DNA of 64,000 nucleotides from assembly GCA_045631045.1 (NCBI GenBank), contig JAZQUB010000011.1, positions 1,214 to 65,213 of the forward strand, read 5' to 3'. A program made the translations under genes and the position numbers. A model generated the notes under the pieces. That model searched no databases. It was not told where the DNA came from and saw only the letters and a list, made by a program, of their open reading frames with translations. Shown piece by piece: positions 3,792-27,849 of the stretch (within the stretch, counting starts at the first letter, position 1; each line of letters opens with the position of its first letter). The stretch comes from Lachnospiraceae bacterium (lineage in GTDB: Bacteria; Bacillota; Clostridia; Lachnospirales; Lachnospiraceae).

Positions 3792-5072
3792 TTATGCCTG
3801 ATATACTACTTTGCCACCGCAGATTGTGTATCGCACCTTTCCCGTAAGGGTCTCCCCCACAAATGGTGTATTCACTGCCTTGGATTCAAACTTCGTACCA
3901 ACGGTCCAAACCTCCTTCGGGTCATAGAGCACTAAATCGGCGTCTGCCCCTACAGAAATATGTCCGCGGCTTTCTTCTAAATGATATAACTTAGCAGGAT
4001 TGTAAGACATTTTCTCCATCAGCTTGGCATGATTCATATATCCCGGTTCCACCAGATGTGTAATGCAAAGTGCAAGACTGGTTTCCAAACCTATGATACC
4101 GCTTGGTGCCTGGGTAATATCTTTTGCTTTTTCCTCTATACTATGAGGCGCATGGTCCGTAGCAATCAAATCAATGGTACCATCTACCAAGCCCCCAATA
4201 ATTGCCAATCTATCAGACTCCGTACGAAGTGGCGGATTCATCTTTGCCAAGGTGCCGTGAGCAATTACTGCATCTTCCGTCAACGCAATATGATGCGGAG
4301 TTGCCTCAGCCCAAATATCACCGCCCTGTGCCTTGCCTCCTCGCACCAAATCAACCGCCTCACTGCTGCTGATATGCTGCACATTCATAGAGGCGCCTGT
4401 TTCCAGTGCAAGCTGTACATCTCGCTCCACCATACTGATTTCCGCCTGACGGTCGCTGCCTCCAATACCAAAATGCATAGATGCTTTGCCACGATTTACA
4501 CCATTATTGGAAATAAACATCGGATGTTCCTCGTGAAAACTAATCGGCACCTGAAGTCTGGCGGTTTCTGCCATAGCTGCCCTTGCCAGTTGCTCTTCTA
4601 AAATCGGCACACCATCATCCGTAAACCCAATGGCACCGGCCGCCTTCAGAGCTTCCATGTCAACCATCTCCTTGCCCTGCATACCCACGGTAACTGTAGC
4701 ACAGCTTTCTACGTGAATACCGGTTTCGCGACCTTTTTCCAATACATAGGTCAACGTCTCCACACTGTCAATAGCCGGCTTGGTATTGGCCATCATGACA
4801 ACCGTAGTAAAACCGCCTGCTGCCGCCGCCTTTGCACCGGTATAAATATCCTCTTTATACGTAAGCCCCGGATCCCTGAAATGTACATGTACATCCATAA
4901 GCCCCGGTCCTGCCACTAAGCCGGTACCGTCAATTACTTCTGCACCTTCCCCGTTCCGGCTTTTATTCGGTCCGGAAATTTCAATAATCTTTCCGTCTTT
5001 TAATAAAATATCACCAAGAACCTCTGTCATACTCTTTGGGTCTGCAATGGTTACATTTTTTATCAGTAGCAT
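3792..5072 (-). CDS. pyrC: Dihydroorotase
   Basis: 426 aa. DVHVHFRDPG metal-binding motif and ATDHAPH motif; sits next to pyrK/pyrD. Confidence 0.9.
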   Translation of the reverse strand: MLLIKNVTIADPKSMTEVLGDILLKDGKIIEISGPNKSRNGEGAEVIDGTGLVAGPGLMDVHVHFRDPGLTYKEDIYTGAKAAAAGGFTTVVMMANTKPAIDSVETLTYVLEKGRETGIHVESCATVTVGMQGKEMVDMEALKAAGAIGFTDDGVPILEEQLARAAMAETARLQVPISFHEEHPMFISNNGVNRGKASMHFGIGGSDRQAEISMVERDVQLALETGASMNVQHISSSEAVDLVRGGKAQGGDIWAEATPHHIALTEDAVIAHGTLAKMNPPLRTESDRLAIIGGLVDGTIDLIATDHAPHSIEEKAKDITQAPSGIIGLETSLALCITHLVEPGYMNHAKLMEKMSYNPAKLYHLEESRGHISVGADADLVLYDPKEVWTVGTKFESKAVNTPFVGETLTGKVRYTICGGKVVYQA

Positions 5073-5143
5073 AGTAAACCTCTCTTCGTTGTACTCAATC
5101 TTCTATTTATTATCTTAACATTAACCGCGATAAATGTACAGTA

Positions 5144-5575
5144 TCATTTGGCAAACAACGGAACATCCTCTATCAGCTCTGTCTTCAACACCACAATCGG
5201 AAACTGCACCGTATTAATTTTCTCCTTTCCTGCTTCCGGTCCCAGCAAAGATGTATCCACTAAAATTCCGTTTTCTCCGAGAAACAAATCATTCACCACA
5301 ATACTGTGCCCGCTATACTCCTGCCTGCCATATCCAATACAAATATACAAATATTCCTTATCGCTGTACGTCATCTCAAAAGGCTCTTCTTTTCGTTCTT
5401 CCAACAGTGGGGCCAGCTCTTTTGGAATACGTTCCTCACTTAAAATGGTATACTCCAACTCACGTACCTTTTCTCCGGCCCCCTTATGCACGTCGTTTAG
5501 CTTAATCCCCATATCACAGGCGGTTAACGTAATCATCAAAACAATCGTTGCTGCCAAACTGATTATTTTCTTCAT
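5144..5575 (-). CDS. Putative lipoprotein (PrcB C-terminal-like?)
   Basis: Start at MKKIISLAATIVLMITLTAC (lipobox LTAC) at 5575. The longer ORF-track N-terminus is unlikely. Confidence 0.6.
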   Translation of the reverse strand: MKKIISLAATIVLMITLTACDMGIKLNDVHKGAGEKVRELEYTILSEERIPKELAPLLEERKEEPFEMTYSDKEYLYICIGYGRQEYSGHSIVVNDLFLGENGILVDTSLLGPEAGKEKINTVQFPIVVLKTELIEDVPLFAK

Positions 5576-5719
5576 ATACTGCTCCAATAACTTTTTGTAA
5601 AAATATATGTGACTACCACTCCTCATTATGACACAATAGCAGTTGCTTTTCTTTTTCAAACACGTTATACTAATTATAATTATATGCAAAAATATATTTC
5701 TCAGCAAAGGACAACCTCT

Positions 5720-6460
5720 ATGATAAGATTTCTTGTAATCATTACATTTATATTTATATTTTTAGTATGTACTCTGCCACTTTTACTGGTTTTTTGGCTT
5801 TTACACAAGCGTTATCCCGAAAAAATCGACCGTTTAAGCTTTGCCATTGTTCAGTGGGCGCTGCGTGGCGTTACGTGGCTTGCCGGCACAGAAGTTACCG
5901 TTCTCGGCAAAGAAAACATCCCTCAGGGCAAACCGGTGTTGTATATTGGAAATCATACCAGCTTCTTTGACATCATCATTCCATACACCCTGGTTCCGGA
6001 CCTGACCGGCTATGTTTCCAAAATTAGTATGAAAAAATTTGTCGGCTTAAACTTCTGGATGGTTCGTATGCACTGCCTCTTTTTAGACCGCAGCAATGTA
6101 AAAGAAGGACTTAAAACCATTCTTTCCGCCATCGACAAAGTAAAAAACGGCATTTCCATCTTTATTTTCCCGGAAGGCACCCGCAACAAAACCCCGGAAA
6201 CCCTTATGGAATTCAAGGGCGGCAGCTTTAAGATTGCCGAGAAAAGCGGTTGTCCTATTATTCCGGTTACCATGGTAAATATGTCTGATATTTTTGAAGA
6301 CCACTTGCCACGCGTCAAAAAGACACGCGTTGTCATTGAATTCGGTGCTCCGATTGACATGAACACCCTTGACCGCGAAGATAAAAAGCACATTGGTGCT
6401 TATGTGCAGAATGTGATTGCAGAAACGTATAAGAAGAATAAAGAATCTTATTTTAAGTAA
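5720..6460 (+). CDS. plsC: 1-acyl-sn-glycerol-3-phosphate acyltransferase
   Basis: NHTSFFD (HX4D) and FPEGTR motifs. N-terminal TM. ATG 5720 has an AAAGG RBS. Confidence 0.85.
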   Translation: MIRFLVIITFIFIFLVCTLPLLLVFWLLHKRYPEKIDRLSFAIVQWALRGVTWLAGTEVTVLGKENIPQGKPVLYIGNHTSFFDIIIPYTLVPDLTGYVSKISMKKFVGLNFWMVRMHCLFLDRSNVKEGLKTILSAIDKVKNGISIFIFPEGTRNKTPETLMEFKGGSFKIAEKSGCPIIPVTMVNMSDIFEDHLPRVKKTRVVIEFGAPIDMNTLDREDKKHIGAYVQNVIAETYKKNKESYFK

Positions 6461-22040: not shown

Positions 22041-22090
22041 AAACAAGGCTGCCACATCAGTTTAAAAACCAATGTGACAGCCTATTTTGT
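22040..22090. terminator. Convergent bidirectional terminator
   Basis: AGGCTGCCACAT-loop-ATGTGACAGCCT, with an A-run upstream and TATTTTGTT downstream. Confidence 0.7.
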
Positions 22091-22872
22091 TATCCCAAAG
22101 CTACATCTAACGCCATCATCAAAGAAAAACCCACTGCAAACATAACCGTACCCAGATTGGAATGCTCTCCTTCGCTCATTTCCGGAATCAGCTCCTCTAC
22201 TACCACGTAAATCATGGCACCTGCGGCAAAACTCAATAAATACGGCAAAACCGGCACCACATAATTTGCTGCCATAATCGTAAGAATGGCCCCGATAGGC
22301 TCAACTACACCGGACAGCATACCATATAAAAATGCTTTTGGCTTCCCGGTTCCCTCTGCCCTAAGGGGCATGGATATAATCGCTCCTTCCGGAAAATTTT
22401 GAATGGCAATACCTAAAGATAAGGTCAATGCACCTGCCAATGAAATTCCCGCATTGTCCATAATCATGCCCGCAAACACAGCACCAACGGCCATTCCCTC
22501 CGGGAGATTGTGCAGTGCCACCGCCAGTACCAGCATCGTGGAACGGGACAATGGACTCTTTGGACCTTCTGCTTTTTCACTGTTCAGATGCAAATGTGGA
22601 ATCGCCCTGTCCAGGGCTAGAAGAAATACAATGCCCATCCAAAAACCCGCTACGGCCGGAACAAAGCTCCACGTTCCCATACCCGACGCCTGTTCCATAG
22701 CCGGAATCAAAAGACTCCACACAGAGGCTGCTACCATAACACCTGCCGCAAAACCGGTCAGTGCCCTTTGCAGACCACGTTTCATTTCCCCTCTCATAAA
22801 GAACACGCATGCCGCCCCCAAAGAGGTTCCTAAAAACGGCAACATAATACCCTGAAAAATTTCTATCGTCAT
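22090..22872 (-). CDS. ZIP family metal (Zn/Fe) transporter
   Basis: 260 aa, 8 TM. ALHNLPEGMAVG and IAIQNFPEGA motifs. Begins 9 nt after the upstream gene. Confidence 0.85.
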   Translation of the reverse strand: MTIEIFQGIMLPFLGTSLGAACVFFMRGEMKRGLQRALTGFAAGVMVAASVWSLLIPAMEQASGMGTWSFVPAVAGFWMGIVFLLALDRAIPHLHLNSEKAEGPKSPLSRSTMLVLAVALHNLPEGMAVGAVFAGMIMDNAGISLAGALTLSLGIAIQNFPEGAIISMPLRAEGTGKPKAFLYGMLSGVVEPIGAILTIMAANYVVPVLPYLLSFAAGAMIYVVVEELIPEMSEGEHSNLGTVMFAVGFSLMMALDVALG

Positions 22873-22881
22873 ATAAATCTC

Positions 22882-25800
22882 CTACAAATTAGAATGTTCC
22901 AATATATTATATGCCAATTCCTGCATTTTGGAAACATTTACTTTGCAAACCTTTCTGTCATATGTATAAAGACCGTTCACTTCGTCTTCCACGTCACTAA
23001 GCTGGGTATACACACATCCACAAATTCCTTTCTCCAGTCCGGGCAAAATCATTTCTTTATACATGTTTACAATCATGTCCGTCAGTGCTTCCTTATCCTC
23101 GGAACTGCCATAACCATACGTATTGTATTTACTATAATAATGCTCCTTTACCACCTGGGAATAGCCACCACACTCCGATACAAAAGCCGGTCGCTCCTTA
23201 ATCGTCGGCGGTGTCGTCTTAAAGTAAATGTGCGTACTGTCAAAGTCGTTTTTCTGCTGTGAAAACCAGCCGGATGTAGTATCCGCCAGTCGGGTATTAT
23301 CCAGACGCTTCACCAAATCATACATTTCATCACTGTTAAACTGACCCCAGCCTTCATTGAAAATGGTATATGCCACAATACTCGGATGATTGTACAACTG
23401 CTCTATGGTTTCTTTGGTATGCCTCTTAAAAATACGCATGGTTTCGTTTTCATGCTTTTTTACATCCTTTCGCTTCAACATACCAATGGTTGGAAGCGCG
23501 GTATCAAACAGGAAAGAATAACCACCGTTATTTACCATATCCTGCATCACTAACATACCATGCTTATCACAATAATAGTAAAACACCTCCGGCTCCACCT
23601 TAATATGCTTACGCAGCATGTTATACCCCAGCTCTTTCATGCGTAGAATATCTCTTTCGTATTCCTCCGGTTCTGCCGGAAGAAAAATGCCGTCACAGAA
23701 ATATCCCTGGTCTAAGACACCATGCATGAAAATCGGCTTGTTATTCAGACAAACATGATTTACACCACCCACATTCTGAATGTCTATTTTACGAAGTGCA
23801 AAATAGGTGTCCACCTCGTCTGTCTCTGTTACAATCTTCATATCATAAAGATGTGGATTGTTCACATCCCAAAGCTTTGGAGTGTAATTCTGACCGCTTT
23901 TGTCCACATGGTCAGTCAGTTTTATGTAACCTTCCCGCCCAATAAACTGTTTTTCCAATTGTTCACCATTAGACAATTGGATAATTACTTTAAATCCTTT
24001 TTCCTGTACGCCAGCTGCCTTTTTCAAGTTCTCTGCTAAAATTTCACCTGCCATGTTCAACGAAATTGTCACACCGTCCATATTCGGAGTCAACATCACT
24101 TTTGCAATATATGTCTCCGATACATTTTCCAGCCACACACTCTGCCAAATACCGCTGACCGGGGTATACCACATGCCGCCGCGCTCCTTGCATTGCTTAC
24201 CATAAGGATACTTTCTATCAAGACGGTCTGTCACCTTTACTACCAATCGGTTTCTTCTTTCACGCTCTATATTCGATGTAATATCCAGACAAAACGGTAG
24301 ATAACCGCCCTCATGCTTGCCAACGGGCACATCATTCACATAAACTTCCGCAATCTGGTCCACCGCACCAAAATGCAACAACACACGCTCCTTTGTAAAA
24401 TCTTCCGGAATGGTAAACTCCGTCTCATACACCAGTTTGGCTCCTATACGACCTTCAAACCCGGATAGAAGTGCCTGTGGTGGAAACGGCATACAAATCG
24501 GCTTACCGTTTAAGGTCCAGTTTTTATGTAAGATCACATAACCTGCTCGCTTCATCTGCGGTCTTGGGTATATGTCCCATGGGGTTGTGGACGAAGCCAG
24601 CACACGCTCCCCTGCCTCACTTACCAATCTATGATGTGCCACGCGCACCATATAAAAAATCGCATCCAGTACTAACAGCAATACTACTGCTGTCACAAAA
24701 GCTGCTGCCCAGATATTTCTATTTGGAAGAAAAGAAAATGTACCATCATTATTTTCAATCTGCTGTGCATTACGAAGTACAAATGCACCGATAGACGGTC
24801 CAACTACTCCCGGAATCAATACTTGTCCGATAATACGAATCCCTTGGAAACGACCTGCCATATTTTCCGGAATATGCTCACGAATTTTAGCACCAAATAC
24901 TGCCATACCACACAAGTAACCGCTCATCATAAGCAGCGAACCGATAAATACCGGCAAAGTACCTATACTTACAAACAAAATCAGATATCCTGCAAGCAAC
25001 ATTCCCACACATGGATACACGCTTTTTTGAAAACCAAGCTGGTCATACAAGCTTCCATAAACTGCGGTAAAAATGGCTGCCAAAATAATTGCCGGAGCCA
25101 GTACAAGGACATAATTTGTCATCTGTAAGGATTTTTCATAATACACAATTAAGTAAGGCATATACGTGTTGATAGAGATACCAAACACTGCAAAGGCTAC
25201 AATCACCGCATATAATAATTTATTATCCTTAAAGGTGCGAATCCGAAAACTGTAAAGCACATTTTGCAAATACGTAAACTCTTGTTTTTCTTCCGTGTTT
25301 CCGGACTGTACCTTTCTCGTCGGTGCTTCCTCAATCAGGAAAATACCCAGTGCACCAAGCACAATTACTATGCTGCCTATTATAACAAAAATCAAGGACC
25401 AACTGGATGCCAGATCCAAATTAAAGCCCATAAAACCGCCAAACACCACGAGAATTGCCACAAGCGGCATCATGGCATTAATACCCTCGATTTTACCACG
25501 GTTACTTTTATCACCCACGTCTGTCAGCCAGGCATTGTACGCTGCATCGTTTGCCGCGGAACCAAAAAAGATCATCACACAGTCCAGAATAATTACCAGA
25601 CTAACCCCCAGCGCTGCAGCTTGAACGGTACCGCCGCATAAAAGCGTCAAAACGTCCATTCTCACCAGACCAAATCCCAGTATAGAAACACCCCACACCA
25701 TGTACCCACCGCAAATGAATGTTTTGCGCTTACCAATATAATCAGATAATGCTCCGATTAAAATAGTAGTCAGTGTGGCCGCCACAGAGCTGGCACTTAC

Positions 25801-25944
25801 CATCAAGGAAATATCTGCTGCAGACGCATGAAACATTTTGTAGATAAATACATTCAGGTACATATTTTCTACCACCCATGCCACCTGACCTACCAATCCA
25901 AACAGCACAAGTGCTGCCCAAAATTTTTTGCCTAAGTTTTTCAT
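22882..25944 (-). CDS. Fusion protein: 12-TM MFS/GPH-like transporter (N) + glycoside hydrolase family 2 (C)
   Basis: Residues 1 to about 445 form 12 predicted TM helices with an MFS loop motif (GALSDYIGKRK). From about residue 465 come the GH2 sugar-binding, Ig-like and TIM-barrel regions, with NEGWG (acid/base Glu at 23353-23355) and SECGG (nucleophile Glu at 23173-23175). Confidence 0.8.
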   Translation of the reverse strand: MKNLGKKFWAALVLFGLVGQVAWVVENMYLNVFIYKMFHASAADISLMVSASSVAATLTTILIGALSDYIGKRKTFICGGYMVWGVSILGFGLVRMDVLTLLCGGTVQAAALGVSLVIILDCVMIFFGSAANDAAYNAWLTDVGDKSNRGKIEGINAMMPLVAILVVFGGFMGFNLDLASSWSLIFVIIGSIVIVLGALGIFLIEEAPTRKVQSGNTEEKQEFTYLQNVLYSFRIRTFKDNKLLYAVIVAFAVFGISINTYMPYLIVYYEKSLQMTNYVLVLAPAIILAAIFTAVYGSLYDQLGFQKSVYPCVGMLLAGYLILFVSIGTLPVFIGSLLMMSGYLCGMAVFGAKIREHIPENMAGRFQGIRIIGQVLIPGVVGPSIGAFVLRNAQQIENNDGTFSFLPNRNIWAAAFVTAVVLLLVLDAIFYMVRVAHHRLVSEAGERVLASSTTPWDIYPRPQMKRAGYVILHKNWTLNGKPICMPFPPQALLSGFEGRIGAKLVYETEFTIPEDFTKERVLLHFGAVDQIAEVYVNDVPVGKHEGGYLPFCLDITSNIERERRNRLVVKVTDRLDRKYPYGKQCKERGGMWYTPVSGIWQSVWLENVSETYIAKVMLTPNMDGVTISLNMAGEILAENLKKAAGVQEKGFKVIIQLSNGEQLEKQFIGREGYIKLTDHVDKSGQNYTPKLWDVNNPHLYDMKIVTETDEVDTYFALRKIDIQNVGGVNHVCLNNKPIFMHGVLDQGYFCDGIFLPAEPEEYERDILRMKELGYNMLRKHIKVEPEVFYYYCDKHGMLVMQDMVNNGGYSFLFDTALPTIGMLKRKDVKKHENETMRIFKRHTKETIEQLYNHPSIVAYTIFNEGWGQFNSDEMYDLVKRLDNTRLADTTSGWFSQQKNDFDSTHIYFKTTPPTIKERPAFVSECGGYSQVVKEHYYSKYNTYGYGSSEDKEALTDMIVNMYKEMILPGLEKGICGCVYTQLSDVEDEVNGLYTYDRKVCKVNVSKMQELAYNILEHSNL

Positions 25945-26006
25945 CGCACTCTCCTATGTATTTTTCTTTTTCAACTTCTAAGTTGCCATCTACAAGAATT
26001 ATAACA

Positions 26007-26043
26007 CAAAACTCCCCTGCCAGCTACTAATAAACCGGCAGGG
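26007..26043 (-). terminator. Terminator after the cupin gene
   Basis: On the minus strand, CCCTGCCGG-loop-CTGGCAGGG followed by GAGTTTTGTG. Confidence 0.55.
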
Positions 26044-26057
26044 AATTCCATTCTTTT

Positions 26058-26486
26058 CTAATATTTTTTCTTTTCCCCATCTGCCCGTGTTTTGTGCACC
26101 GTTCCCTTCGGGTGATTCGGCGGTGCATAAACGGAAGACAATTTCAACGGATGCATACTAGCATTTACAATGTTATGCCAGGTTCCTGCCGGAATAAAAA
26201 TGGCATCCCCTTTGCACAAATTTTGCTTAAAGTCCAGCACATTCCTACAGTTTCCCATTTTAACTAATGCTTTCCCATGTTCTATTCTTATTAACTGATC
26301 GGTATCCGCATGCATTTCTACCCCAATCTCCCCACATGGCGGAATACACATAACTGTCATCTGTAAATAACATCCCGTCCAAATCGCTGTTCGAAAGTTA
26401 GGGTTTTGAGCCGTTATATGCTCTATATTGGTAATATACGGATTACCTCCCTTATCTGTCTGCATGGAACAACAACTTTGCTTCAT
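26058..26486 (-). CDS. Cupin domain-containing protein
   Basis: Conserved part is NPYITNIEHITAQNPNFRTAIWTG...GEIGVEMHADTDQLIRIEHG...AIFIPAGTWHN. Start at MKQSCC (26486) with a GAGGG RBS. The longer ORF-track N-terminus overlaps the upstream gene and is discounted. Confidence 0.75.
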   Translation of the reverse strand: MKQSCCSMQTDKGGNPYITNIEHITAQNPNFRTAIWTGCYLQMTVMCIPPCGEIGVEMHADTDQLIRIEHGKALVKMGNCRNVLDFKQNLCKGDAIFIPAGTWHNIVNASMHPLKLSSVYAPPNHPKGTVHKTRADGEKKKY

Positions 26487-26565: not shown

Positions 26566-27849
26566 TTAATCCATACTTTTCTTGTCCTTCCTTGCCGGGT
26601 TATCCAACAGTTTCCCCTGCTCATCGAATCTGGAACCATGGCAAGGACAATCCCAGCTATTTTCATCCGGATTCCACTCCAAACCACATCCCATATGGGA
26701 ACATCGAAGTCCCTTCGGCCCAAGCCATCCCTTGGCAAGTCCTTTTATACTTTCTCCTACGTCATGCAAATAGTTTGCCGTTCCTGCACGAAAGTTCAAG
26801 CGCTGCGGACGATATAACGCCGCAAAGGCATTTTCTTTTCCGCAAATTTTATCCCGAAGTATCATTGCTGCCACCATGGACATACTCATGCCCCACTTTT
26901 GAAACCCGGTTGCCACATATAAGTTAGGTGTAAAAAGAGAATATTTTCCTATAAAAGGAATACCATCATGAGGCATACAATCCTGAGCTGCCCAGCGAGA
27001 CTCCACCTTGCAATCCGGATAATACTCCCTTGCCGCCTGTTCCAATCTGGTAAATGCTCCGCCGCATACATGCTCACCTGTCCTGCCCGACTCTCCTCCT
27101 AAAAGCAACTGTTCACCAGCTTGTCGAAATGAATGCCCATCTCCATCGATTCCATAATACATACCATTTATTTTTTCACATTTCGAAAGCTCCAACACGA
27201 AGCTCCGCTCCTGATGCTGACGCAAAAAATAAAACCCCGGCACATTTCGCATAGGGTAATGGGTCGCCATCACAATATGATCTGCGGTATACACCTTATC
27301 CTTTGTAAATACCTTTTTTCCTCGCACTTTTTCCACCATGGTGTGCTCTAGAATTTCCAACTCATCTGCAATATATTTTACAAAATCCGTTGCACAAAAC
27401 TGCGCCTGATTGCGAAATCCCACAGCCCCGGACACAGCAAAAGGAAGCTCCGTTTCCTTTGTCCAAAAAGCATCGATACCAAGAAATGTGGCCGCCTTCA
27501 ACTCTTCTTTCAGCTTCGTTTCTTCTATATTCGAATATAAATAAGAAGTCACCCTTTCAAACCGACAATCTATATTTTTTGTTTGAACAAGTCTGGCATA
27601 TGCTTCTATGGCAGCTTCATTTGCCCTGGCATATATTCTGGCCTTTTTTTCACCAATATTCTTCAAAAGCTTGCTGTATTTTAATCCATGCTGACTGGTG
27701 ATTTTAGCGGTGGTTCGTCCGGTCTGTCCAGAGCCCACTTCCTTTGCCTCCAGCACCAGTACATCTTTTCCTTCTTCTTTTAAAAAATATGCAGTCAAAA
27801 GACCTGCCATGCCGGCACCAATGACAATCACTTCTCGATGTGTTTTCAT
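26566..27849 (-). CDS. FAD-dependent oxidoreductase with C-terminal Rieske [2Fe-2S] domain (YhfW-like)
   Basis: VIVIGAGMAGLLTAYFL dinucleotide fold; C-terminal CSHMGC...CPCHGSRF Rieske motif. Confidence 0.85.
   Translation of the reverse strand: MKTHREVIVIGAGMAGLLTAYFLKEEGKDVLVLEAKEVGSGQTGRTTAKITSQHGLKYSKLLKNIGEKKARIYARANEAAIEAYARLVQTKNIDCRFERVTSYLYSNIEETKLKEELKAATFLGIDAFWTKETELPFAVSGAVGFRNQAQFCATDFVKYIADELEILEHTMVEKVRGKKVFTKDKVYTADHIVMATHYPMRNVPGFYFLRQHQERSFVLELSKCEKINGMYYGIDGDGHSFRQAGEQLLLGGESGRTGEHVCGGAFTRLEQAAREYYPDCKVESRWAAQDCMPHDGIPFIGKYSLFTPNLYVATGFQKWGMSMSMVAAMILRDKICGKENAFAALYRPQRLNFRAGTANYLHDVGESIKGLAKGWLGPKGLRCSHMGCGLEWNPDENSWDCPCHGSRFDEQGKLLDNPARKDKKSMD

Follow-up and report, generated by a model that had tools for sequence, protein, structure and literature searches.

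What does a bacterium gain by writing a transporter and a glycosidase as one protein, and what would such a protein take up and cleave? A transporter and glycosidase pair is a textbook sugar-use unit, and its members are normally separate proteins. In the window, the whole 64,000-nucleotide stretch of Lachnospiraceae DNA that was analysed, a single open reading frame encodes both. Our main reading, which we hold at a probability of about 0.65, is that this gene is a single-chain import-and-cleave unit for a furanose-capped oligosaccharide or glycoside. The order that the evidence supports best is uptake and then hydrolysis, since the two genes overlap in split versions and since unfused orthologues of the transporter adjoin other exo-acting glycan enzymes. 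What we infer is which way the substrate moves, which ion is coupled to transport, what the substrate is and whether the tether brings any kinetic gain.

The gene and the elements that flank it are the following.

22882..25944, minus strand: fusion open reading frame, 1020 aa, start ATG, stop TAG
26013..26045, minus strand: terminator-like hairpin at the end of the upstream cupin gene (13-bp stem with 7 GC pairs, then a T-run)
25998..26006, minus strand: putative extended -10 promoter-like element TGTTATAAT, a consensus match only, about 54 nt 5′ of the ATG
25951..25954, minus strand: ribosome-binding site GGAG, 6 nt 5′ of the fusion ATG
22090..22872, minus strand: ZIP/ZupT-like metal transporter gene (Pfam Zip, 4.5e-24), starting 9 nt past the fusion stop
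22046..22083, minus strand: strong terminator-like hairpin closing the two-gene unit (17-bp stem, then a T-run)

The hairpin that ends the cupin gene probably marks the 5′ limit of the fusion transcription unit. The ZIP gene, whose 9-nt spacing had been pointed out in the initial annotation and was confirmed, is the predicted second member of a two-gene operon with the fusion. Its own GGAG ribosome-binding site overlaps the TAG stop of the fusion (junction sequence GTAGGAGATTTATATG), and it matches the NCBIfam ZupT model at 4.5e-35, which is under that model's own cutoff. The order of the two genes is kept in relatives at ~90% identity and is absent at about 65-68%; a functional tie of the ZIP gene to the fusion was set aside because the pairing is limited to the former group. 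Fused genes, this one included, usually stand without sugar-catabolic genes or a dedicated regulator nearby.

The protein divides into a transporter half, a linker and a glycosidase half, as given below together with one loop of the transporter that is discussed later.

24640..25944, minus strand: MFS transporter half, residues 1-435, 12 TM helices (Pfam MFS_1, hydropathy, AF2)
24583..24639, minus strand: linker AHHRLVSEAGERVLASSTT, residues 436-454, ~19 aa, family consensus HYxL[WLM]TEAGE
22885..24582, minus strand: GH2 glycosidase half, residues 455-1020, composed of jelly-roll sugar-binding, Ig-like and TIM barrel domains
24730..24762, minus strand: beta-hairpin ENNDGTFSFLP in the extracellular TM11-TM12 loop, residues 395-405 (AF2 strands)

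Pfam MFS_1 matched residues 30-383 with an E value of 3e-27 and 95.9 bits, against a gathering cutoff of 33.4. Hydropathy gave 12 TM segments in which all predicted cytoplasmic loops are rich in K/R, a positive-inside pattern, and the AlphaFold model of residues 1-452 (pLDDT 91.5, pTM 0.89) has the same 12 helices. The K/R-rich TM2-TM3 loop carries the motif-A-like sequence GALSDYIGKRKT, that is, MFS motif A as GALSDYIGKRK at residues 64-74, of which G64, D68, G71, R73 and K74 are invariant in alignment A1; RVAHHR, after TM12, is likewise K/R-rich. From the 12 helices and the K/R-rich inner loops, both termini of the transporter are predicted to be cytoplasmic, and the GH2 domain would therefore be cytoplasmic too. 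That a 12-TM MFS transporter and a GH2 domain are covalently fused, as first proposed, was thus confirmed by the reading frame, Pfam, hydropathy and AF2, and the proposed cytoplasmic location is supported by the predicted even-TM topology, the positive-inside loops and AF2. The full-length AF2 model is of moderate quality (pLDDT 74, pTM 0.60), too uncertain for the domain interface or for the geometry between vestibule and active site; in it, residues 443-450 of the linker form a short helix.

The transporter had originally been described as an MFS/GPH-like transporter of sugars. The MFS part of this description stands (motif A, MFS_1), and the GPH-like part does not. A GPH/MelB-type transporter was ruled out: the protein had no match to PF13347 (MFS_2/GPH) at a threshold as loose as E<=10, searches of the PDB by phmmer and by profile returned no relative of the MFS half, and Foldseek with the MFS model retrieved many MFS structures of generic kind at TM 0.6-0.7, with MelB, MFSD2A and LacY all absent from the 50 best PDB matches listed. 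Precomputed matches to PF13347 exist in some homologues only and are weak or faint. The MFS half is a small, distinct MFS subfamily, and seven of its charged residues (E26, D121, D133, R149, E153, E270 and R370) do not vary among 50 fused homologues. Since neither sequence nor fold gives a GPH signal, the label of sugar importer rests on context. An observation that goes against the import reading is that the MFS half, by itself, says neither "sugar" nor "importer".

The direction of transport could then be the reverse, with the GH2 domain hydrolyzing a cytoplasmic glycoconjugate and the MFS domain expelling one product, for example an aglycone or a sugar. The nearest folds to the MFS half mix importers with exporters, and many of the closest are exporters or antiporters (VMAT2, LmrP, NorA, YajR); NCBIfam efflux-type MFS models also match weakly, far under their cutoffs, and catabolic genes for a released sugar are not found nearby. 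However, the MFS fold is silent on direction, exo-glycosidases of this GH2 clade recur beside uptake systems (PTS and other transporters), and the unfused MFS pairs with enzymes for extracellular plant glycans. The loop between TM11 and TM12 also argues for a substrate met outside the cell. Hairpin strands at 395-397 and 403-405 are present in both AF2 models (full-length and residues 1-452), and N398, D400, G401, T402 and F405 inside the hairpin, together with P407 just past it, are invariant in alignments A1 and A3, as expected if this extracellular loop recognizes an outside substrate. We regard cleavage followed by export as very unlikely.

The GH2 half gave clearer indications of what the protein may act on. 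Pfam placed GH2_N at residues 500-605, GH2 at 647-718 and the GH2_C TIM barrel at 731-892, all over their gathering scores. By sequence, the closest PDB entries are 7SF2 (4e-90), the Galf-ase 9J6N (1e-66) and 7XYR (1e-51); the top three of Foldseek are 7SF2, the structure of ORF1110 and 7XYR, with TM scores of 0.76-0.81 normalised to the target. An enzyme of the LacZ or GusA type was ruled out, since NCBIfam equivalog scores fall far under the cutoffs (for example, 107 vs 544 bits) and the top structures, by sequence and by fold, belong to group III. The two catalytic glutamates reside in motifs that align with ORF1110.

23353..23358, minus strand: N863-E864 of NEGWG, the O2-binding Asn and the acid/base Glu, aligning with N463/E464 of ORF1110
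23173..23175, minus strand: E924 of SECGG, the nucleophile, aligning with E530 of ORF1110

In fused homologues, N863 is conserved in 50/50, E864 in 49/50 and E924 in 50/50. The group III signature (R399, H401, Y512 and T586 of 9J6M) is found here as R778, H780, Y907 and T980, each in 50/50. ORF1110 binds iminogalactitol, a Galf mimic, through K212, Y228, H401, N463, E464, E530, Y551 and E594 (PMC11627007). All eight are identical here, as K583, Y593, H780, N863, E864, E924, Y945 and E988, and the residues that make the exocyclic O5/O6 contacts of Galf in ORF1110 (K212, Y228, Y551 and E594, here K583, Y593, Y945 and E988) are invariant. Also shared with ORF1110 are R399, Y512, D423, the Thr that replaces a stacking Trp, and three Mg ligands; all the active-site residues compared are conserved in 49-50 of 50 fused homologues. 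The metal bound at the GH2 site of ORF1110 is Mg, and no specific ZIP link was seen.

These matches and residues place the GH2 half in group III (GH2_18/19), the furanosidase group, and its -1 pocket is of the Galf type. Enzymes of group III (GH2_18/GH2_19) are known to act as Galf-ase or Araf-ase, and a few as beta-galactosidases (PMC12243196). The sugar removed here is most likely beta-D-galactofuranose or alpha-L-arabinofuranose, which is nearly isosteric with it; as group III also holds beta-galactosidases, Galp is a further candidate. The subfamily evidence is mixed. About 10% of GH2_19 members and about 80% of GH2_18 members are secreted (PMC12243196), and a cytoplasmic site and Bacillota origin suit GH2_19 better, whereas the bit scores point to GH2_18 (228 to a GH2_18 structure vs 179 to 7XYR, an atypical GH2_19 structure). 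The initial annotation was right that both glutamate motifs are present and that the enzyme resembles neither LacZ nor GusA; its view that the substrate was not deducible gives way to a partial deduction, a group III furanosidase-type enzyme with the pocket described above.

A Galf-type pocket does not by itself point to the diet. Galf is common in bacterial walls (PMC12290620), and the MFS domain might re-import pieces of Galf-containing wall polysaccharide or teichoic acid that the cell itself sheds as it grows, which the furanosidase would trim in the cytoplasm for re-use, analogous to AmpG and NagZ. Such envelope recycling would agree with an active site like that of a Galf-specific enzyme, O5 and O6 binders included, with the place of fused genes outside carbohydrate-utilisation loci and apart from any dedicated regulator, and with the plain extended -10 promoter-like element at this gene. 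AmpG is also among the fold matches, weakly, at rank 40-48, but dozens of other MFS proteins match the fold at least as well. Against recycling stands the company of the unfused orthologues, whose partners and neighbours act on plant or dietary glycan caps: a PL27-like gum-arabic lyase, GH29, GH78 and SGNH/CE2 esterases. One unfused MFS orthologue adjoins the PL27-like Rha-GlcA lyase gene with a 4-nt overlap, and another adjoins a GH29 fucosidase and an AraC regulator. In G576, a genome of another family, the split MFS|GH2 pair is grouped with two SGNH esterases, an RpiB/LacAB isomerase and a GH78 rhamnosidase. On the glycosidase side, close stand-alone GH2 relatives lie directly 3′ of other transporters, NhaC-type in two cases and a PTS cluster in one. 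We consider recycling unlikely. Stand-alone MFS orthologues were expected to occur as split pairs, but most do not, and several have no glycosidase neighbour.

The MFS-GH2 fusion is common in gut Clostridia. At least 120 full-length fused homologues are present in databases, 22 member sequences fall in the 90%-identity cluster of this protein, and the fusion occurs in 11 of the 301 Lachnospiraceae genera sampled (15 genera have this MFS, and it is fused in 11 of them). Carriers of the fusion include Roseburia-type relatives. Uninterrupted fused frames at 82-93% identity were found in independent assemblies, so a stop codon lost to sequencing error, a concern raised at the outset along with how far the fusion extends, does not apply; the many independent full-length homologues rule out a sequencing or assembly artefact. 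A search of the open-access PMC and bioRxiv literature found no published work on this fusion and no characterisation of its family, and the fusion appears never to have been studied by experiment. The Thermofilum paper PMC6965361, taken up as a possible precedent, proved irrelevant to the fusion. The only label that databases give these proteins is "MFS transporter", and surveys of product names can therefore easily miss the glycosidase in them.

The two halves also exist apart. In G300 and G576 the MFS and GH2 genes are separate and adjacent, with overlaps of 4 nt and 17 nt, respectively. In trees of the MFS half and of the GH2 half, fused and unfused forms are interleaved, and a remnant of the linker motif persists at the N-terminus of 66/97 stand-alone GH2 relatives; the fusion is therefore old and has been broken repeatedly. 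Because these breaks left working-looking separate halves, the covalent link is dispensable. It is an optimisation and not a necessity, as many lineages have separated the halves or lost one, and import channelled directly into hydrolysis, which the fusion had first been taken to imply, is not required by these data.

One may ask whether the fusion is simply the neutral read-through of two neighbouring genes, persisting by chance, its halves lacking a common substrate. It has been broken many times with neither half lost, and the MFS orthologues that stand without any glycosidase neighbour would agree with that. Against it, the fusion is retained, linker included, among proteins whose MFS halves have drifted apart to 35-60% identity, the split genes stay adjacent and overlapping in two families, the fused form prevails in the genera that have this MFS, and both halves are under strong constraint (63% mean column identity, invariant catalytic residues). 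We find chance persistence highly improbable.

A stronger form of the import reading makes transport and hydrolysis one coupled act, in which the GH2 active site docks on the cytoplasmic MFS vestibule through the conserved HYxLxTEAGE linker helix and cleaves the substrate at its release; we think this unlikely. If true, hydrolysis would pull uptake forward and render a secondary carrier effectively one-way, a "group translocation by hydrolysis" for glycosides, and gut Firmicutes would have in this protein their first route dedicated to taking up Galf- or Araf-capped oligosaccharides.

In the import-and-cleave reading that we prefer, the N-terminal 12-TM MFS domain, probably proton-coupled, would import a small furanose-capped oligosaccharide or glycoside, and the conserved ~19-residue linker would hold the GH2 group III exo-glycosidase at the cytoplasmic face. 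This domain would remove the non-reducing terminal sugar by a retaining mechanism that uses two glutamates, E864 (acid/base) and E924 (nucleophile). Fusion would guarantee that both halves are made 1:1 and reside at the same place, and rapid cleavage would hold the internal substrate concentration low. For abundant gut Lachnospiraceae, the fusion points to a route for furanose-capped glycans that annotations lack, with side chains of arabinan or arabinogalactan and galactofuranans of fungi or bacteria as candidate sources, and the partner enzymes (GH2 group III, PL27-like, GH29) give a first handle on the cargo of this MFS subfamily. A widespread, natural single-chain version is also a simple system for testing the kinetic gain from coupling uptake to hydrolysis, and it comes with natural controls because the same halves are also found split or alone.

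Among known systems, the GH2 half is nearest to characterised furanosidases. It shares the three-domain GH2 core and the active-site residues of ORF1110 of Streptomyces sp. JHA19 (GH2_18; 9J6M/9J6N), a beta-D-galactofuranosidase, at only about 27-30% identity to ORF1110 and group III. ORF1110 is secreted and carries CBM42, whereas the GH2 half here is predicted to be cytoplasmic and tethered to a transporter. Other group III members are GfgA/GfgB of A. nidulans, Afu2g14520 of A. fumigatus and a Thermotogae Araf-ase. GH2_19 has been described as devoid of other domains (PMC12243196), which differs from the fusion. The closest solved structure, 7SF2 (BACCELL_01794 of Bacteroides cellulosilyticus; E 4e-90, TM 0.80 normalised to the target), is a soluble Bacteroidota protein of ~590 aa, deposited as a "beta-galactosidase" and lacking a published function.

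LplT-Aas and LacS resemble the fusion in that they are MFS proteins whose cytoplasmic C-terminal domain responds to the molecule carried or acts on it. LplT-Aas, which occurs in some bacteria, joins a lysophospholipid transporter to an acyltransferase/acyl-ACP synthetase, and LacS is a GPH transporter with a C-terminal IIA domain; to our knowledge, these represent another enzyme class and other substrates, and neither is a glycoside hydrolase. In AmpG/NagZ muropeptide recycling, import through an MFS protein precedes the action of a cytoplasmic exo-glycosidase, as proposed for the fusion, but the genes are separate, the enzyme is a GH3 and the system is Gram-negative. In E. coli LacY/LacZ and GusB(UidB)/GusA(UidA), the glycoside that a secondary transporter imports is cleaved in the cytoplasm by a retaining GH2 enzyme. 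Their genes are adjacent, as are those of the split versions of this fusion. Unlike these pairs, the protein described here is one polypeptide, its GH2 domain is of group III where theirs are of the LacZ/GUS group I, and its MFS half is neither LacY-like nor GPH-like.

The fusion gene forms a single uninterrupted frame on the minus strand of the window, and all four domains of its product scored above their Pfam gathering thresholds:

22882..25944, minus strand: fusion ORF, 1020 codons, ATG start, TAG stop
Residues 30-383 of the fusion protein: MFS_1
Residues 500-605 of the fusion protein: GH2 sugar-binding domain
Residues 647-718 of the fusion protein: GH2 Ig-like domain
Residues 731-892 of the fusion protein: GH2 TIM barrel

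This confirmed the initial annotation, which had read the frame as a covalent fusion of a transporter to a glycosidase. A Kyte-Doolittle scan placed twelve hydrophobic spans in the N-terminal half (residues 8-28, 45-66, 76-94, 105-127, 155-176, 182-204, 241-261, 275-297, 307-325, 327-350, 369-390, and 411-434). AlphaFold2 modelled residues 1-452 from 38 sequences with high confidence (pLDDT 91.5, pTM 0.89) and gave the same 12 helices, in agreement with the twelve TM helices counted earlier; between TM11 and TM12 it also placed a short beta-hairpin. K/R clusters were located at the N terminus, in loops TM2/3, TM4/5, TM6/7, TM8/9, and TM10/11, and after TM12; the TM2-TM3 loop carries MFS motif A (GALSDYIGKRK). 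The transporter half is thus predicted to adopt the canonical N-in/C-in topology. Since the GH2 half starts about 19 residues past TM12, it would lie in the cytoplasm, where the initial annotation had put it; the basic-loop pattern and the even number of helices agree.

The transporter half matched the generic MFS_1 model only, and the MFS_2/GPH profile gave no match to it at E<=10. Neither phmmer nor a 40-sequence profile retrieved a related PDB chain. The structural model fitted dozens of unrelated MFS folds equally well (TM 0.6-0.7, 12-20% identity), including sialin, G6PT, VMAT2, DgoT, YajR, PfHT1, GLUTs, NorA, and AmpG, and these fold matches displayed no preference for the MelB or LacY fold. 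On these results, MFS membership is established, while the label of sugar importer is drawn from context. The earlier interpretation therefore stands as a fusion of MFS and GH2 and is not supported in calling the transporter GPH-like, as neither the profile search nor the 50 best fold matches tied it to MelB-type transporters. Just 203 matches to the MFS half were found at E<=1e-30 among 1.84 billion 50%-identity representatives, which leads us to regard it, by sequence, as a small, distinct subfamily. Fused-length representatives (989-1045 aa) occurred down to 35% identity. Seven charged residues are invariant (E26, D121, D133, R149, E153, E270, and R370), as are N398, D400, G401, T402, F405, and P407 in the hairpin region of the TM11-TM12 loop, which is predicted to be extracellular.

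For the GH2 half, the top PDB sequence match was 7SF2, the uncharacterised BACCELL_01794 (E 4e-90), followed by the beta-D-galactofuranosidase ORF1110 of Streptomyces sp. JHA19 (9J6N/9J6M; 1e-66) and 7XYR (1e-51), which comes from B. thetaiotaomicron and is uncharacterised; in this search, no classical beta-glucuronidase or beta-galactosidase scored better than 1e-18. Foldseek with the full-length model, which is too uncertain for reading the interface between the halves, returned 7SF2, the ORF1110 structure, and 7XYR as its top three (TM 0.76-0.81, normalised to target). A GusA- or LacZ-type enzyme was rejected, as the NCBIfam equivalog scores were far below their cutoffs; together with the leading rank of the group III structures, this bears out the earlier remark that the motifs differ from those of LacZ and GusA. 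In the 2025 subdivision of GH2, 9J6M belongs to GH2_18 and 7XYR to GH2_19, which jointly form group III (PMC12243196). The distinctive activities of the group are beta-D-galactofuranosidase and alpha-L-arabinofuranosidase, two beta-galactosidases have been reported within GH2_19 as well, and GH2_19 members are described, on a CAZy basis, as having no other known domains (PMC12243196). ORF1110 contacts iminogalactitol, a mimic of galactofuranose (Galf), through K212, Y228, H401, N463, E464, E530, Y551, and E594, with E464 as acid/base and E530 as nucleophile (PMC11627007).

When the ORF1110 residues were mapped onto the fusion protein by HMMER alignment, all eight iminogalactitol-binding residues were identical (K583, Y593, H780, N863, E864, E924, Y945, and E988). 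Both catalytic glutamates noted initially are therefore present, E864 and E924 aligning with E464 and E530. Identity extends, in ORF1110 numbering, to D157, D201, and Q213, which bind Mg, to D423, and to the signature of group III, made up of R399, Y512, and T586, a Thr found in place of the stacking Trp. Among 50 fused homologues (64-93% identity), all of these columns were conserved in 50/50 except for one E864Q. Because of this identity and conservation, the GH2 half is judged to be a retaining exo-glycosidase that is intact and whose -1 pocket is of the Galf type. By sequence, its preferred sugar may be Galf, arabinofuranose (Araf), or another. Every testable group III feature was found in this half, which may belong to either GH2_18 or GH2_19.

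The initial annotation had left the spread of the fusion to a database search. Among 5.8 billion proteins, at least 120 full-length ones (62-93% identity) shared the Pfam architecture of the fusion protein; the few named ones (Lachnospiraceae, Roseburia) were labelled just 'MFS transporter'. Of 301 genomes, each representing one genus of the family to which the window belongs, 15 had the MFS orthologue: 11 fused, 3 alone, and 1 as a split adjacent pair, a 434-aa MFS gene and a 575-aa GH2 gene overlapping by 4 nt (genome G300). The two genes overlap by 17 nt in genome G576, which belongs to a different family within that class. Unfused GH2 relatives (35-60% identity) were far commoner, in roughly 90/301 genomes. 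Fused and stand-alone forms were interleaved in two trees: one of 100 MFS halves, built by maximum likelihood (13-14 changes by parsimony, at least 5 forced by well-supported branches), and one of 91 GH2 halves, on which the fused state changed at least 6-7 times.

The direction of change, from fused to separate, is indicated by three kinds of remnant. The linker motif HYxL[WLM]TEAGE opens 66/97 stand-alone GH2 relatives of 60% identity or more; two such proteins (P0242 and P0243) join the transporter's first residues (MKNLGKKFW...) straight to the linker; and in genome G070 (locus L016, 18-3228) a GH2 gene starting with the linker remnant lies directly behind a transposase ORF, apparently a fused gene cut short by an IS element. 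The simplest reading of these sequences is an old fusion, repeatedly broken by deletion or fission, so the tether would be useful, not essential. A neutral fusion of unrelated neighbours is the explanation to which we give the least credence.

The fusion gene appears to have its own promoter and to open a two-gene operon, based on the order of predicted elements upstream, the junction with the ZIP gene, and the closing hairpin:

26566-27849, minus strand: FAD-dependent oxidoreductase (DAO family), 427 aa, with a C-terminal Rieske [2Fe-2S] domain
26058..26486, minus strand: cupin-like ORF, about 142 aa, the 5' neighbour of the fusion gene
26045-26013, minus strand: terminator-like hairpin ending the cupin-like ORF
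26006-25998, minus strand: extended -10 element TGTTATAAT, consensus match
25954-25951, minus strand: GGAG site ahead of the fusion ATG, consensus match
22090..22872, minus strand: ZIP gene, its GGAG site overlapping the fusion stop codon
22083-22046, minus strand: 17-bp hairpin and T-run closing the unit

The ZIP gene starts 9 nt after the fusion stop, as reported initially. In the window, the cupin-like ORF separates the FAD/Rieske gene from the fusion gene. It is missing from the 90%-identity relatives, where these two genes share one base, the last of the FAD/Rieske gene and the first of the fusion. The FAD/Rieske gene is repeatedly found ahead of the fusion gene, in relatives of 68% to 100% identity (L039 3715-5001, L040 559-1845, L022 56-1420, L024 1-244); the two may be linked in function or may simply share synteny. 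Behind ZIP, the 90%-identity relatives have an AP_endonuc_2 gene (xylose-isomerase-like TIM barrel) and, farther on, L-rhamnose mutarotase (rhaM) (L039 8827-11000, L040 5671-7844), a weak hint of a sugar context; the window has none at that position.

Neighbourhoods of fused genes were varied, and neither sugar-catabolic operons nor dedicated regulators were found near them in the loci examined; a CE2 esterase gene lies two genes upstream of one. At L034 3094-6290, one unfused MFS orthologue overlaps by 4 nt the gene for a 636-aa protein that resembles the PL27 L-rhamnose-alpha1,4-glucuronate lyase BACCELL_00875 (5e-124) and has no Pfam match. PL27 enzymes strip rhamnose caps from gum-arabic arabinogalactan (PMC8377490). 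A second orthologue sits behind a GH29 alpha-L-fucosidase gene, with a divergent AraC regulator, and in G576 the genes after the pair encode an RpiB/LacAB isomerase, two SGNH esterases, and a GH78 rhamnosidase. In loci L006 and L007, about 1 kb without a called gene (5026-6001) separates a spoIIA-like sigma-F cluster and the gene for a 977-1011-aa PT-repeat/SH3 protein from a stand-alone MFS orthologue downstream.

Other transporter genes immediately precede those of close stand-alone GH2 relatives, some of which retain the linker remnant. An NhaC-type (PF03553) gene directly precedes the GH2 gene in two loci with gaps of ~25-30 nt (L030 4670-7752 and L031 4660-7752), and both proteins checked, P0245 and P0248, respectively, keep the remnant; in L004 (8924-12775) one 165-aa gene separates the two. 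This pairing looks like a swap of the MFS partner for a non-homologous transporter. Another relative lies directly behind a PTS EIICBA-HPr-EI cluster. What recurs is the pairing of a transporter with a cytoplasmic exo-enzyme that would act on the terminal decoration of glycans of plant type or microbial origin, which supports uptake followed by intracellular trimming. The reverse order, GH2 hydrolysis and then export of a product by the MFS half, appears very unlikely. The substrates hinted at by these contexts are side-chain fragments of arabinogalactan or pectin, or glycans capped by Galf. It is also conceivable, if unlikely, that the cell recycles fragments of its own envelope that contain Galf, in the manner of AmpG/NagZ.

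Under the uptake reading, the MFS domain would import a small furanoside-capped oligosaccharide or glycoside (we infer both direction and substrate), the membrane-tethered GH2 domain would cleave the terminal sugar through E864 and E924, and the products would pass into central metabolism; the fusion would fix the stoichiometry and proximity of transporter and enzyme. We found no description of an MFS-GH2 fusion in the open-access literature, and one may exist elsewhere. For biochemistry, the fusion offers a target of moderate interest that should be very tractable. Its architecture is new within a known kind of system: it resembles the LacY/LacZ and GusB/GusA pairs in how it works, but it is one chain, and its halves belong to subfamilies other than theirs.
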